From positions 1-34,932 of the forward strand of contig WFSC01000175.1 of the NCBI GenBank assembly GCA_015486185.1: a stretch of DNA of 34,932 bases, given 5' to 3'. The DNA is from Bacteroidales bacterium (GTDB lineage Bacteria; Bacteroidota; Bacteroidia; Bacteroidales; VadinHA17). The position numbers and the translations under genes are program-made. The notes beneath the pieces are model-generated. The model worked only from the letters and a program-made list of their open reading frames with translations, was not told where the DNA came from and did no database searches. Every line of letters begins with the position of its first letter. The stretch's first letter is position 1. This document shows positions 3,063-31,673 of this stretch, piece by piece.

Positions 3063-3995
3063 ATGGAAGATGTTATTCCTCCCGTACCTAAAGAGTTGAT
3101 CTTAGAAGAGCTCACGCCTGACAAGTACATCAGGAAGACAAACAAAGGGTATAATGAAGTATATATCTTCACCTATAAGGATTCTCCCAATCTTATGCGG
3201 GAGTTGGGGCGGCTCAGGGAGATCAGTTTCCGGGAAGCCGGTGGGGGTACGGGAAAAAGTCTGGATATTGATGAATTTGATTTGGGGGATCACCCTTATA
3301 AACAGTTGATTGTATGGGATCCGTCAGCAAAGGAGATCATTGGAGGATACCGCTTTTTCATTTGTCACAGAAATACGGATCCTGCACGTTTGGCCACCTC
3401 ACACCTATTCCGGTTCAGTGACAAATTTTTAAAGGAATACATGCCTCACCTTGTAGAACTGGGGCGTTCTTTTGTACAACCGGAATATCAACGGACCGGG
3501 GCACACGCCAAAAAGGGTATTTTTGCTCTCGACAACCTCTGGGATGGTTTGGGAGCAGTTGTCATAGACAATCCCGGTGTAAAATATTTTTTTGGTAAAA
3601 TGACCATGTATCCCCATTTTCAAAAAAAGGCCCGTGATCTGATCCTGTACTTTCTTGACCGGTACTTTGGGGACAGGGAAGATCTTGTTATTCCGATCCA
3701 CCCGATGCAGCCTGAATATGACAAAAAAGAAATGGATGCCTTGTTTTCCGGCAATAATTACCTGGAGAACTATAAGATCCTTTCCCAGCAGGTAAGGCAA
3801 CTGGGAGAAAATATCCCTCCCCTTTTCAACTCCTACATGAACCTGTCGCCCACTATGAAGATTTTTGGCACGGTCATTAACTACGAATTCGGAGATGTGG
3901 AAGAGACCGGATTAATGATCACAATAAAAGACCTGTATCTGGATAAGGTAACGCGACATCTCTCTTCGTATAACGAAGATTTCAGACTGGATTAA
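3063..3995 (+). CDS. GNAT N-acyltransferase, GlsB/OlsB-like (amino-acid lipid synthesis; often annotated 'hemolysin')
   Basis: LMRELGRLREISFR, DIDEFD, VELGRSFV and IPPLFNSYM motifs of the OlsB/GlsB-like family; a TAAATTTG box at 3039-3046 overlaps the upstream stop codon. Confidence 0.8.
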   Translation: MEDVIPPVPKELILEELTPDKYIRKTNKGYNEVYIFTYKDSPNLMRELGRLREISFREAGGGTGKSLDIDEFDLGDHPYKQLIVWDPSAKEIIGGYRFFICHRNTDPARLATSHLFRFSDKFLKEYMPHLVELGRSFVQPEYQRTGAHAKKGIFALDNLWDGLGAVVIDNPGVKYFFGKMTMYPHFQKKARDLILYFLDRYFGDREDLVIPIHPMQPEYDKKEMDALFSGNNYLENYKILSQQVRQLGENIPPLFNSYMNLSPTMKIFGTVINYEFGDVEETGLMITIKDLYLDKVTRHLSSYNEDFRLD

Positions 3996-19804: not shown

Positions 19805-19894
<90 letters not shown>

Positions 19895-22453: not shown

Positions 22454-22527
22454 TGATCCCGGCGGGACTCGAACCCACAACCTTCAGAACCGGAATCTGA
22501 CATTCTATCCAATTGAACTACGGGACC
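22454..22527 (-). tRNA. tRNA-Arg(CCG)
   Basis: Reverse complement GGTCCCGTAGTTCAATTGGATAGAATGTCAGATTCCGGTTCTGAAGGTTGTGGGTTCGAGTCCCGCCGGGATCA; -7 box TAAATTTG at 22544-22551. Confidence 0.95.
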
Positions 22528-27985: not shown

Positions 27986-28708
27986 GTGTTTGGCTTATCT
28001 TCGAAAAAAATTAACCCCCTTTTGCCTCATCAAAAGGGGTTTTATATGCAAATCAAAAAACTGATCTCTTATCCGCCCCGGGATATCACCCTGTACCAGA
28101 TCGCTTTCGTAACCCGCTCTCATTCCATTCCCGTCTCAGGTCAGATCATCAACAACGAAAGGCTGGAATTTCTGGGTGATACCATTATCAGCACTATCAT
28201 CTCAGAATATTTATACCGGCTATATCCCGAAAAAACCGAAGGAGAACTATCCATCCTGCGTTCCAAGATTGTCAATGGACATTCCCTGAACCGGATTGCC
28301 CTCGACCTTAAACTGGACCAACTTGTACAATACACTTTCTATTCCGAGAATCAGCATAAACATATTTTTGGAGATGTATTTGAAGCTTTTATCGGGGCTA
28401 TGTTCCTGGACCATGGATATAATAAAACCCGCCAATACTTTCTTCGGGTCCTTTTTGACAAATACATCGATATTCATCAGATCCTCCATGAAGACCAGGA
28501 TTATAAAAGTCTGATGATCATATGGGCACAGAAAAATCACAAGAAAATATTTTTTGTCACCAACGAAACCCGCACGGCACATAATAAAAAAATATTTAGC
28601 TCTCTGGTGCAAACCAATCGTGATATTCTGGCCGAGGGAACCGGTTACTCAAAGAAAGAAGCAGAACAAAATGCCGCTAAGAAAGCATATTATAAGATAC
28701 GTAAATGA
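27986..28708 (+). CDS. rnc: Ribonuclease III
   Basis: NERLEFLGD, DVFEAFIGA and dsRBD GYSKKEAEQNAA; GTG start uncertain. Confidence 0.93.
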   Translation: MFGLSSKKINPLLPHQKGFYMQIKKLISYPPRDITLYQIAFVTRSHSIPVSGQIINNERLEFLGDTIISTIISEYLYRLYPEKTEGELSILRSKIVNGHSLNRIALDLKLDQLVQYTFYSENQHKHIFGDVFEAFIGAMFLDHGYNKTRQYFLRVLFDKYIDIHQILHEDQDYKSLMIIWAQKNHKKIFFVTNETRTAHNKKIFSSLVQTNRDILAEGTGYSKKEAEQNAAKKAYYKIRK

Positions 28709-28740
28709 CAAAACAGCATTGTTGACCTTTAGATTGATAC

Positions 28741-29169
28741 ATGATGCCAAAGACCAGGAAACACAGGCTTCTGCTTGAACCAGATCAAAACTTTCTGTTA
28801 ATAGCCATTGCCTCTCATGAGAAGGGATATCATCTAAGCTGGATCTTAAACAAGGAAACAGGAAGCCATTTTATCCGCTCTTCCGATTTCCGGATTGACC
28901 GGAAAAATACGCCTCTTTCATTCCCTGTATTTGGCTGGGAAGATAAAAATAAATTGTTGAGCTATCATCTCATTGCAAACCGCTCAGAAAATGGGTTTTT
29001 ATTCGACGATCTGAAAAATATTGATTTTTTCCTTCATATTTCTCCTGATCCGGGAGAATCCTTTGCCCGGGAACTGCAAGATCAATTAAAGACCCTCCCT
29101 GTTATCTATACCTGTTTTCCTATTGATACCAAAAAATATCCTTCTGCCGGTATGTTACAATTCGATTAA
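28741..29169 (+). CDS. IPExxxVDY-family-like protein
   Basis: FLLIAIAS...YHLSWILNK...YHLIANR...LFDDLKNIDFF resembles this Bacteroidota family with a degenerate motif; typical position near rnc. Confidence 0.6.
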   Translation: MMPKTRKHRLLLEPDQNFLLIAIASHEKGYHLSWILNKETGSHFIRSSDFRIDRKNTPLSFPVFGWEDKNKLLSYHLIANRSENGFLFDDLKNIDFFLHISPDPGESFARELQDQLKTLPVIYTCFPIDTKKYPSAGMLQFD

Positions 29170-29221
29170 TATATACCATTGCCTGATCCACAGTGATACA
29201 AAAGCCAGTGGAAATGGAAGC

Positions 29222-29254
29222 AAAAAAAAGCAGGTGATGTTTCACCTGCTTTTT
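29222..29254. terminator. Bidirectional intrinsic terminator, longer U-tract on the minus strand
   Basis: A8-GCAGGTGA-TGTT-TCACCTGC-T5. Confidence 0.88.
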
Positions 29255-29305
29255 CCGTATTAACCCTTTTATTAACCTAAACCAAAAACCTACTGCTTTT
29301 GTTCT
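29222..29305 (-). ncRNA. Candidate sigma54-dependent small RNA (~84 nt)
   Basis: Promoter-like element, ATG-free body with four GGUU motifs, and terminator with U8. The 5' end is inferred from -12 spacing. Confidence 0.5.
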
Positions 29306-29315
29306 TTATAAAATT

Positions 29316-29332
29316 ATCAAATTCCGTGCCAA
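29316..29332 (-). promoter_or_regulatory. sigma54 (RpoN) -24/-12-like promoter
   Basis: TTGGCACGGAATTTGAT versus consensus TGGCACG-N4-TTGCW: exact -24 element and spacing, with GA instead of GC at -12. Confidence 0.6.
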
Positions 29333-29444
29333 AAATCGTTTTTCTTAAAATATCTGCTTTCTTTGTTTAATTAACGTTAATTTTAATAAATTGTTGCAAA
29401 AATCTTCTTTATTTTTTAACACCACAAAGATAAATCAGGTATCC

Positions 29445-29479
29445 GTTAAGAAGGGTTAAAGGATGTTAAATAGTGTTAA
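29445..29479 (+). promoter_or_regulatory. Four GTTAA direct repeats with exact 10-bp period (putative OmpR-family/RprY boxes)
   Basis: GTTAA at 29445, 29455, 29465 and 29475, between divergent TATCTTTG -7 boxes (minus 29425-29432; plus 29507-29514). Confidence 0.6.
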
Positions 29480-29521
29480 AAGATCAGAGGTGATGGGGGA
29501 AAGAACTATCTTTGTAAGGCT

Positions 29522-30973
29522 ATGAATAAAAAGGTTATATGGATATTGACCGGTATAATGGGGGTAGGAATGCTGGCACTTGTCATAATACAGACCTACT
29601 GGTTAAATCATGCAATGAGGGTAAAAAGTCATCAATTTAAACAAACGGTAAATGAAGCTTTTCATGAGGTAATTGCCCAGCTTGAAAAAAATGAAATATA
29701 CAACATCGTAATCCGTGAGATCAATATTGAATCGTCCGACTCAGGCACCCTGGTCTTCCCCATGGGAAACAATTCCTCAAACAATAATTTCCCCGGCATG
29801 GATACCCTGCTGTTGAAGGGACGGATCAATGGGATATTGAATGAAACCGGAGAGAACGGCAAAGTAGATAATCAGTTTGATCGCACTTTGATGATAAAAC
29901 ATATCCTTGAAAAATTATCAAAGAAACCCCCTGACATTCAGGATCGCATCAATCCTGTTGAGCTCTTTTACCTTATCAAAAAAACCCTGAGGAAATACGG
30001 GATCAGCCAACCTTTTGAATTTGCGATAAAGAAAGATCAAACCGATATTGTGTACAGAACCCCGGGTTATACCGAGAAACATAAGTTTGTCAATACTTTT
30101 GAACAAACCCTGTTCCCTAACGATATTGTTAACCAGAAAAATTCACTTGTTTTGTACTTCCCTGATGAACATAAATATCTGGTCCGGTCTTTAGGCTGGA
30201 TCGGATATTCCTCCGTAGCGTTGACCTTTTTTTTCCTTGTGGTATTCCTTGGAACGTTGTATATCATTATGAGACAAAAAAGAATATCGGATATCAAAAC
30301 TGATTTTGTCAATAACATGACGCATGAACTTAAAACCCCTATCTCGACCATTTCACTGGCATCACAGATGCTGAAAGATAAAAGTATCTCCAATAATGAT
30401 AAAAATATTGACCATATAGCCGGCGTTATTGAAGATGAAACCAAAAGACTGAGTCACCAGGTGGAAAAAGTTCTGCAGATGGCCGTTTTTGAACGAGGAC
30501 GGGTAAAACTTAACCGTAAAGAAACTGATATTCATGCCATTATTAAAAATGTTATCCAAAACTTTTCCATACGCATCCAGAATAAGAACGGAAAGATCGT
30601 TTATGATCTCAATGCTAAACGGTCAACCGTTTTCATCGACGAAGTCCATATTACAAATGTTCTTTCCAATTTGGTGGACAATGCCATTAAATATAGTATG
30701 GAGGCGCCTCTGATCTATATTAAGACAGAAAATAATGAAAAAGGAATACTTATTTACGTCCGGGATAACGGCATCGGATTATCAAAGGAACATTTGAAAA
30801 AAATATTTGATCAGTTCTATCGTGTCCCGACAGGGAACATTCATAATATAAAAGGGTTTGGACTGGGACTAAGCTATGTCAAAAAGATCATTGAAGAACA
30901 CGATGGGACAATCACTGTGGAAAGCATGATAAACAAAGGAACCACCTTTACTATATTTTTACCTTTTACATAA
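29522..30973 (+). CDS. rprX: Sensor histidine kinase RprX-like
   Basis: Two TMs; H-box FVNNMTHELKTP, N-box NLVDNAIKY, DNGIG, FDQFYRV and GFGLGLSYVK. Confidence 0.88.
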   Translation: MNKKVIWILTGIMGVGMLALVIIQTYWLNHAMRVKSHQFKQTVNEAFHEVIAQLEKNEIYNIVIREINIESSDSGTLVFPMGNNSSNNNFPGMDTLLLKGRINGILNETGENGKVDNQFDRTLMIKHILEKLSKKPPDIQDRINPVELFYLIKKTLRKYGISQPFEFAIKKDQTDIVYRTPGYTEKHKFVNTFEQTLFPNDIVNQKNSLVLYFPDEHKYLVRSLGWIGYSSVALTFFFLVVFLGTLYIIMRQKRISDIKTDFVNNMTHELKTPISTISLASQMLKDKSISNNDKNIDHIAGVIEDETKRLSHQVEKVLQMAVFERGRVKLNRKETDIHAIIKNVIQNFSIRIQNKNGKIVYDLNAKRSTVFIDEVHITNVLSNLVDNAIKYSMEAPLIYIKTENNEKGILIYVRDNGIGLSKEHLKKIFDQFYRVPTGNIHNIKGFGLGLSYVKKIIEEHDGTITVESMINKGTTFTIFLPFT

Positions 30974-30989
30974 AATTAAAAAATATATC

Positions 30990-31673
30990 ATGGATAAGAT
31001 CCGTATTTTACTGGCAGAAGATGATGAAAATCTTGGTACATTACTAAAGGAATACCTGCAGGCCAAGGGTTATGAAACCGACTTATATCCCGATGGAAGC
31101 CATGCATATAAAGGATTTATTACCGATCATTATGATCTCTGTTTACTCGATATTATGATGCCGGTAAAAGATGGTTTTACGTTGGCAAGGGAGATCAGAC
31201 AGTTAAATTCGGACATACCCATCATTTTTTTGACGGCTAAGTCGATGAAGGAAGATGTATTTGAAGGATTCCGTATTGGTGCCGACGATTACATCACCAA
31301 GCCTTTCAGTATGGAAGAATTGCTTTTCCGTATTGAGGCTATCCTGCGCAGAACAAAATCCGGCCAGGTAGAGAACCAGGATCAGTTTAAGATCGGAAAG
31401 TATCTTTTTGATGCGAACAAACAGGAACTTACTTTTGGAAATCAGGTGCAGAAAATGACCACCAAAGAATCGGAACTGCTCCGGTTGCTTTGTAATAACA
31501 AAAATAAGATCCTCGAACGGAATTTTGCCTTGCGCACCATCTGGATGGATGATAATTATTTCAATGCCAGAAGCATGGATGTATATATCACCAAGTTAAG
31601 AAAATATCTTAAAGAGGATCCGTCCGTTGAGATCATCAATATTCACGGAAAAGGATATAAGCTGATCTGTTGA
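30990..31673 (+). CDS. rprY: OmpR-family response regulator RprY-like
   Basis: EDDENLG...LDIMMP..DG, FLTAK, GADDYITKPFSMEEL and winged helix DDNYFNARSMDVYITKLRK. Confidence 0.9.
   Translation: MDKIRILLAEDDENLGTLLKEYLQAKGYETDLYPDGSHAYKGFITDHYDLCLLDIMMPVKDGFTLAREIRQLNSDIPIIFLTAKSMKEDVFEGFRIGADDYITKPFSMEELLFRIEAILRRTKSGQVENQDQFKIGKYLFDANKQELTFGNQVQKMTTKESELLRLLCNNKNKILERNFALRTIWMDDNYFNARSMDVYITKLRKYLKEDPSVEIINIHGKGYKLIC

Follow-up and report, generated by a model that had tools for sequence, protein, structure and literature searches.

A 34,932-nt stretch of Bacteroidales DNA (contig WFSC01000175.1 of GenBank assembly GCA_015486185.1, positions 1 to 34,932; hereafter the window) was analysed, with attention to the intergenic region upstream of an rprXY-like two-component gene pair. 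The minus strand of this region carries what is almost certainly a real, conserved small RNA (sRNA) gene rather than a chance arrangement of motifs, and the host of the gene is an uncultured Rikenellaceae genome. A sigma-54 (-24/-12) promoter directly upstream is very probably functional, and the RNA is likely to be homologous to the FopS RNAs of gut Bacteroides, as judged by sequence comparison. Overall, we somewhat favour a FopS-like base-pairing repressor with an RRM protein as partner, under the control of sigma-54 and possibly of the response regulator RprY. The predicted unit consists of the following elements:

29222..29305, minus strand: predicted sRNA of ~84 nt, from sequence, a covariance-model match and conservation.
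29317..29331, minus strand: predicted sigma-54 -24/-12 promoter (P2), TGGCAC-N5-TTGA, from sequence, invariance and recurrence upstream of family copies.
29255..29296, minus strand: core GCAGUAGGUUUUUGGUUUAGGUUAAUAAAAGGGUUAAUACGG, rich in GGUU and nearly invariant, which is presumably single-stranded and serves as seed and protein-binding site.
29222..29249, minus strand: Rho-independent terminator with an 8-bp stem, AACA loop and U8.

Read on the minus strand, the promoter stretch TTGGCACGGAATTTGAT occupies 29332-29316, with TGGCAC at 29331-29326 and TTGA at 29320-29317, and is followed by the body AGAACAAAAGCAGUAGGUUUUUGGUUUAGGUUAAUAAAAGGGUUAAUACGG (29305-29255), which holds four GGUU motifs, and by the hairpin GCAGGUGA (29249-29242), AACA, UCACCUGC (29237-29230) and a U8 tract (29229-29222). 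The predicted transcription start site is 29305 ± 2, 12 nt downstream of the -12 element, and the 3' end would fall within the U8 tract. From 29420 to 29222 the minus strand contains no ATG, and no notable open reading frame (ORF) lies inside the sRNA unit. An earlier note on this DNA had described the same succession of a -24/-12-like promoter, a GGUU body, a hairpin and U8, with four GGUU motifs in an apparently unstructured body and no ATG up to 29420, and each of these elements was recovered at the same positions.

When the 352-nt intergenic region was used as query against 41 related genomes, the sRNA body was recovered in 10/10 congeners (genus g1, that of the window) at 85-91% identity. 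The match covered most of the intergenic region in five of them, and in the other five it fell into two islands, the RNA body and a block near rprX. Tandem double copies, 250-320 nt apart and each with its own terminator, were present in four congeners (G004, G005, G006 and G008). A covariance model, R1, was built from the RNA only, with the promoter left out; it matched the window at 29222-29304 with 108 bits and was found in 72 of 151 genomes of the taxonomic family (E ≤ 0.001), with 10/10 genomes matched in g1, 5/6 in g3, 29/39 in g14, 16/16 in g2 and 2/40 in g11. Thirty loci from R1-matched genomes were inspected, taking in a minority of the g14 and g2 matches. The match lay beside and divergent from rprX in 17 of the 19 non-congeneric loci, with rnc on the other side in 16 of these 17, while RprX itself was only 34-48% identical to that of the window; the two non-syntenic loci were weak g2 matches. 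The core was more conserved than the neighbouring proteins (59-75% identity for RprX and 39-65% for the 142-amino acid ORF product), with 43 invariant columns across 16 copies and a 42-nt stretch remaining nearly invariant while the terminator stems vary.

Folding of the 96-nt strand gave -26.8 kcal/mol (z = -4.39), and 0 of 200 shuffled sequences folded as well. Applied to a MAFFT alignment, RNAalifold wrongly paired body and terminator and returned no covarying pair; the hairpin was therefore entered by hand for model R1. When 32 copies were realigned to the model, a fit which in itself favours structure, changes on both sides of the terminator helix were seen in 8/8 pairs, 98.8% of 248 cells were paired, and the covariation score was reached by 0/500 shuffles. 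For helices inside the body, covariation supported 0/17 predicted pairs.

The promoter letters TTGGCA.G..A.TTG were invariant in 6/6 aligned species, between variable flanks, and most relatives have the canonical TTGC at the -12 element where the window has TTGA. Conservation upstream of rprX had been proposed as a check by the earlier note. The pattern [TC]GGCA[CT]-N5-TTGN was found within 80 nt upstream of 27 of 33 copies from five genera, against 0.0023 expected per such window in the window's own genome (G000); as the genomes are kin, this count does not amount to a formal test. Two g2 loci, which were excluded from the 33 copies, show no sigma-54 motif. Among the 27 copies with the motif, 13 have GC as the -12 dinucleotide and the others GT or GA. 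The earlier note had made its proposal depend on the presence of rpoN, and G000 does encode one (Sigma54_DBD, 186.8 bits in a 502-amino acid frame) together with four strong enhancer-binding protein genes (Sigma54_activat, 220-249 bits). If the sRNA promoter is sigma-54-dependent, one of these AAA+ enhancer-binding proteins would be needed; the rprY-like regulator belongs to the OmpR family and is not an enhancer-binding protein. Collectively, comparative support has been gained for a non-coding RNA that depends on sigma-54, lies between promoter and terminator, runs divergently from rprXY and starts near 29305, the promoter motif accompanying the RNA in five genera.

Sigma-54-like sites of the same TTGA type precede dnaK (contig C61, TGGCATAATGATTGA) and htpG (contig C245, TGGCACAGGTTTTGA), and TGGCA[CT]-N5-TTG[AT] sites were also identified before a serpin gene (C123) and upstream of one clpB (C97, TTGT). 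The sigma-54 promoters mapped in Flavobacterium psychrophilum include those of groES/EL, lon, dnaK, grpE-dnaJ, htpG, skp, clpB and a putative RNA, Rfp36 (PMC9723704), and a comparative paper describes the same trend across Bacteroidota (PMC12316311). The sRNA would probably sit within this sigma-54 protein-quality-control and envelope-stress regulon, dnaK and htpG sharing its promoter type here. Two of the enhancer-binding genes share a contig with groES (C86) and with grpE (C27), respectively.

Additional sequence features around the promoter were noted in relatives. In g14 orthologues (L044, L046, L047, L050-L052) a conserved palindrome CTGATATTTGCATCAG abuts the -24 element, and a second inverted repeat, TGTTAAA-N9-TTTAACA, lies ~60-90 nt upstream; both are possible activator or repressor sites, and neither occurs in the window's genus. 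TCAYTCAT microsatellites, present near some sigma-54 sites, were considered as a sigma-54-linked element and set aside as frequent and not specific (41 sites in G000); they include sites on C245 upstream of htpG and on C167/C56, and such repeats also occur between the tandem sRNA copies of congener L098.

Further upstream, the sRNA and rprX share a divergent promoter region, the features of which are listed here with those of the neighbouring genes:

29425..29432, minus strand: TATCTTTG, a TAnnTTTG -7 box of the Bacteroidota primary sigma type, candidate promoter (P1) toward the sRNA.
29445..29480, minus strand: four (T/C)TTAAC direct repeats in exact 10-bp phase, candidate RprY (OmpR-family) operator.
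29507..29514, plus strand: TATCTTTG, the -7 box of rprX; the minus strand reads invariant TACAAAGATA.
29522..30973, plus strand: rprX-like sensor histidine kinase (HisKA and HATPase_c).
30990..31673, plus strand: rprY-like response regulator of the OmpR family (Response_reg and Trans_reg_C).
27986-28708, plus strand: rnc, convergent with the sRNA.
28741-29169, plus strand: 142-amino acid ORF with no Pfam family, convergent with the sRNA.

Thus acpP-fabF-rnc and the 142-amino acid ORF converge on the sRNA from one side, and the rprX- and rprY-like genes diverge from it on the other. Going from rprX to the RNA, the rprX -7 box is followed by the four repeats (29480-29445), a 12-nt gap, TATCTTTG (29432-29425), a conserved leader and the sigma-54 promoter. 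Because the rprX box ends only 7 nt 5' of the annotated ATG (window 29507-29524), the rprX mRNA may have little or no leader.

Among 66 upstream regions of rprX, spanning Bacteroidales to Sphingobacteriales, 39 contain pairs of the form TTAAC-N5-TTAAC, 38 of them in the same orientation, and the whole of G000 contains just 16 such pairs, three of them at this locus. Phased direct repeats suit OmpR-family regulators and Porphyromonas gingivalis RprY binds its own promoter (PMC3646045), for which reasons the repeats between the divergent rprX and sRNA promoters are a candidate RprY operator; the accessible portions of the literature on RprY yielded no DNA motif with which to compare them. Other TTAAC pairs in G000 (on C279, C386, C5, C172, C207, C373, C394 and C158) stand before or beside large ORFs (1103, 962 and 941 amino acids), and these rare pairs may mark an RprY regulon. 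Outside the family, TTAAC pairs preceded 3 of 28 order-level matches and sigma-54 motifs 2 of 28, many of these matches being weak, and no TTAAC pair was present within the 150 nt scanned at the canonical FopS loci L076 and L078.

This second layer raises the question of which promoter makes the RNA. The main transcript could start from the TAnnTTTG promoter (~29418) under RprY, with TGGCAC-N5-TTGA weak, silent or modulatory, giving a ~195-nt and possibly processed sRNA of the RprXY regulon. Conservation within the genus extends to P1 and its four repeats, the box being kept in the 10 g1 species compared. In L096 and L116, which have two copies each, P1 is the sole promoter-like element before the first copy, the sigma-54 site belonging to the second; rprX-linked FopS-like RNAs of other Bacteroidales families have TTAAC repeats and a TAnnTTTG box and no sigma-54 motif; and the -12 element of the window is non-canonical. 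We nevertheless consider this alternative quite unlikely, since the sigma-54 letters are invariant between variable flanks and are found across five genera with a constant spacing to the RNA body, and the TTGA form is also found before dnaK and htpG. Nor are P1 and P2 mutually exclusive: in the window and three other species both precede the same copy. Under the reading with sigma-54 at the proximal promoter, the primary-sigma -7 box ~100 nt further upstream, together with the four TTAAC repeats common to it and the rprX promoter, would probably add RprY control and a longer isoform.

Assignment of the RNA to a family was approached through Rfam and through our own models. At gathering thresholds, nothing in the window was recognised but two tRNA genes, at 19805-19894 (plus strand) and 22454-22527 (minus strand). 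Against FopS (RF04319) the window scored 18.7 bits in global and 20.1 bits in local mode, below the gathering cut-off of 56, with AGGUUAAUAAAA agreeing with the consensus at 12/12 positions of the Rfam alignment. Syntenic orthologues from g3, g14, g33 and g12 reached 33.1-40.4 bits, the FopS matches coinciding with own-model matches in 9 of 15 loci scanned, and the best own-genome paralogue reached 31.2 bits. Other sub-threshold matches, such as L20-leader, SpF25 and sraA, were dismissed as resting on the terminator alone. In the reverse direction, a model built from Rikenellaceae RNAs (R2) matched 27 of 151 genomes of the order, including the canonical FopS copies at L076 and L078, of which L076 carries the published 35-nt FopS consensus when read by eye. 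The alignment forms a graded series from canonical FopS, GUGUUUUUCAUAGUAUUAGAUUUAAGGUUAAC, through g3/g14, GAGUUUUUUUCAUAGGUUAGGUUAGUUUUAGGGUUAAC, to the window, GUAGGUUUUUGGUUUAGGUUAAUAAAAGGGUUAAU. Of the published R1' seed consensus GTGTTTTTCATAGTATTAGATTTAAGGTTAACAAA (PMC11697453), the 3' half AGGUUAAUAAAA is matched by the window at 12/12 positions and the 5' half UUUUUCAU is replaced by GGUUUUUGG. On the strength of the reciprocal sub-threshold matches and the graded series, the RNA is regarded as a probable diverged relative of FopS/GibS and not as a member by the Rfam criterion. The earlier note had recognised no named family and had suggested an Rfam search; its statement stands in so far as no family reaches its cut-off on the element, and the distant kinship with FopS qualifies it. 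That kinship is absent from the earlier note, as are the TAnnTTTG promoter with its TTAAC repeats and the idea that the sRNA and the convergent rnc operon may both end at the hairpin.

The likeness to FopS and GibS of Bacteroides thetaiotaomicron extends to a length of ~65-85 nt, to an unstructured 5' region with the terminator directly after the seed region, to the shared word AGGUUAAUAAAA, with UUUUUCAUAG also kept in orthologues from neighbouring genera, and to several paralogues per genome alongside an encoded RRM protein (one RRM_1 gene in G000). FopS-like paralogues of G000 are located at C19:5424-5521(+), C19:6550-6612(-), C110:7244-7325(+), C334:1583-1662(+) and C430:18092-18172(-). 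They carry GGUUUAGGUUAAUAA or UUUUUCAUAG words and terminators and no sigma-54 motif, the C430 copy being cut by the contig end with its promoter unseen. Paralogues, which the earlier note had expected to lend support, are therefore present both within the genome and as tandem copies in congeners, those within the genome without the sigma-54 motif. In a scan of a weak paralogue locus, a SAM-II riboswitch was identified in G000 at C133 ~3198-3257 (L024:176-235, minus strand; 66.7 bits, cut-off 44). Unlike FopS, the window RNA lacks the anti-start-codon CAU, occupies a fixed syntenic place beside rprXY, and comes from Rikenellaceae, whereas FopS was described for Bacteroidaceae. The promoters also differ: FopS has canonical primary-sigma promoters and GibS a 'PM2' promoter (PMC11697453, PMC7366714), whereas here the proximal promoter is TGGCAC-N5-TTGA and the TAnnTTTG box stands ~120 nt upstream of the body. 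PM2 was considered as a link to sigma-54 and rejected; it is described as a near-palindromic -10/-30 element, and nothing in the accessible parts of the sources ties it to sigma-54.

In susC-type mRNAs, FopS RNAs block translation by pairing close to the start codon, and both FopS and GibS bind the RRM protein RbpB through their single-stranded 5' part (PMC11697453). By analogy, the minus strand at 29305-29222 would encode a ~84-nt trans-acting sRNA, transcribed from a promoter that comparative evidence suggests to be sigma-54-dependent and that would be fired through an AAA+ enhancer-binding protein. Its GGUU-rich region would pair with A/C-rich 5' untranslated or start-codon regions and block translation, the mRNAs so repressed presumably encoding exported or outer-membrane proteins; this single-stranded stretch would also be the binding site of the one RRM protein that the genome encodes. 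The top candidates of a weak target prediction, namely an FG-GAP/ASPIC protein, a PKD/CHU_C protein, a serpin, the N-terminus of a SusC-like receptor and a protein with a CBM9 domain and a type IX secretion system (T9SS) tail, are exported or surface proteins; the best of them is the 5' untranslated region of the FG-GAP/ASPIC gene, with three TTATTAACCT sites. Plain duplex energies returned implausible long duplexes and were dropped, and a both-strand k-mer count of targets proved uninformative by symmetry. That the RNA represses envelope or secreted-protein mRNAs by pairing is put forward tentatively, as a proposal nearly as plausible as its opposite.

The earlier note had offered two mechanisms, a multi-seed base-pairing sRNA and a protein-titrating sponge. 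The former fits best and is preferred because the RNA appears to be a distant relative of FopS/GibS, which pair at translation start regions; the sponge is half right in spirit, binding to an RRM protein being a property of FopS RNAs and G000 having one RRM gene. The CsrB/RsmZ logic invoked for the sponge found no support. As in those RNAs, short G-rich words are repeated in a single small RNA, but the words are GGUU instead of GGA and do not lie in hairpin loops; the PrrB_RsmZ model scored 19 bits against a cut-off of 44 and CsrC 13 against 61, and no match to CsrA was found in the genome, which is 88.8% complete. A related alternative is that the (A)GGUU(A) words act as a decoy, sequestering the RbpB-homologue RRM protein, so that regulation proceeds by sequestration and not by mRNA pairing. 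The four words do lie in a region without a supported helix, a lone RRM_1 gene would supply the protein, tandem copies in relatives would raise the dose, and RbpB and FopS, besides binding each other, act antagonistically (PMC11697453). The affinity of RbpB for FopS, however, is low-micromolar, the mechanism published in the same source is mRNA pairing, and an 84-nt RNA offers few sites; we consider the decoy unlikely.

Several observations weigh against the proposed FopS-like, sigma-54-driven repressor. Perfect complementarity of at least 10 nt to the core was found in 41 of 3709 start regions, compared to 29 with the sense, 18 with the reversed and ~11 with the shuffled control, which is a modest difference, and the TTATTAACCT sites are not in the orthologous untranslated regions of any of the four congeners having the FG-GAP/ASPIC gene. 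Every Rfam score on the element is below its gathering cut-off, and the UUUUUCAU part of the seed, kept in g3, g14, g33 and g11 orthologues, is missing from the window RNA. As regards the promoter, 6 of the 33 family copies have no sigma-54 motif upstream; the -12 element of the window is TTGA, not the canonical TTGC, although the -24 element and the spacing are exact; no site of the same pattern precedes groES, grpE, a second cpn10 or a second clpB; and comparison of the sRNA, dnaK, htpG and serpin sites revealed no shared upstream 8-mers of substance, nor was an enhancer site or cognate activator identified. No RNA sequencing runs are listed for the organism.

The terminator adds two further points to this list: a simple scan of 28600-29700 listed no terminator on either strand, and the hairpin could also terminate the convergent operon (the rnc and 142-amino acid ORF transcript). 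The scan probably missed it since the preceding A5 can extend the stem by pairing with the first five U, leaving a T run too short to be called. In its strongest form, the second point would leave no RNA gene at all, the hairpin merely ending the acpP-fabF-rnc operon that runs toward it, and the GGTT words and the promoter-like motif being due to chance or to protein binding at the DNA level. On the plus strand the same hairpin is indeed followed by T5, 57 nt past the stop codon of the 142-amino acid ORF, but several relatives have only T3 after the stem on that strand. This account would also leave unexplained why a 42-nt core is conserved beyond the neighbouring proteins, why the whole unit, terminators included, is duplicated in tandem, why 27 of 33 copies carry the promoter motif and why the RNA and FopS are similar in both search directions; we regard it as highly improbable.

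The predicted sRNA was also compared with known systems of similar design. GlmY/GlmZ and Qrr of Proteobacteria and Rfp36 of F. psychrophilum are likewise sRNA genes behind a -24/-12 promoter. GlmY/GlmZ resemble it further in combining sigma-54 with a second promoter type (PMC3045617), and Rfp36 in being among the mapped sigma-54 promoters of a Bacteroidota species (PMC9723704). GlmY/GlmZ and Qrr differ in having no sequence relation and in responding to other activators and signals. Our literature search, outside which lay subscription journals and supplements, found no paper on Rikenellaceae sRNAs or on a characterised sigma-54-dependent sRNA of Bacteroidota, the Rfp36 listing being the nearest.

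Enterobacterial envelope-stress sRNAs comprise the OmpR-dependent OmrA/OmrB and the sigma-E-dependent MicA/RybB. The likeness to these is one of logic only, in that a stress sigma factor and/or an EnvZ/OmpR-type system would drive an sRNA that lowers outer-membrane proteins, including TonB-dependent receptors; the sequences are unrelated, there is no Hfq, and the regulators and targets here are presumptive.

The FopS-like kind of RNA was already known, and what is new is its sigma-54-driven, rprXY-linked variant, with a function that we infer from that kinship. FopS RNAs, described in 2025, control glycan-transporter synthesis in gut Bacteroides and are bile-responsive, the regulator not being known and their transcriptional inputs being still open (PMC11697453). 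The present locus places a FopS-like RNA outside Bacteroidaceae, at one fixed chromosomal site beside a conserved two-component system. In Rikenellaceae the RNA has acquired, or kept, a sigma-54 promoter of chaperone-gene type, which would link the post-transcriptional regulation of exported proteins with proteotoxic or envelope stress. The arrangement as a whole suggests that these bacteria use the sRNA to lower the synthesis of exported or outer-membrane proteins when under stress. The candidate RprY operator recurs before rprX across the phylum, and an RprY regulon could therefore be read from sequence. As a more speculative and rather doubtful possibility, the rprX-linked RNA may represent the ancestral single-locus form of FopS/GibS, the output of an envelope-stress circuit joining RprXY (through the TTAAC operator and P1) with the sigma-54 chaperone regulon (through P2). 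If so, it would be the Bacteroidota counterpart of OmrA/B plus RybB/MicA, and RprY would be a candidate for the regulator inducing FopS under bile or membrane stress.

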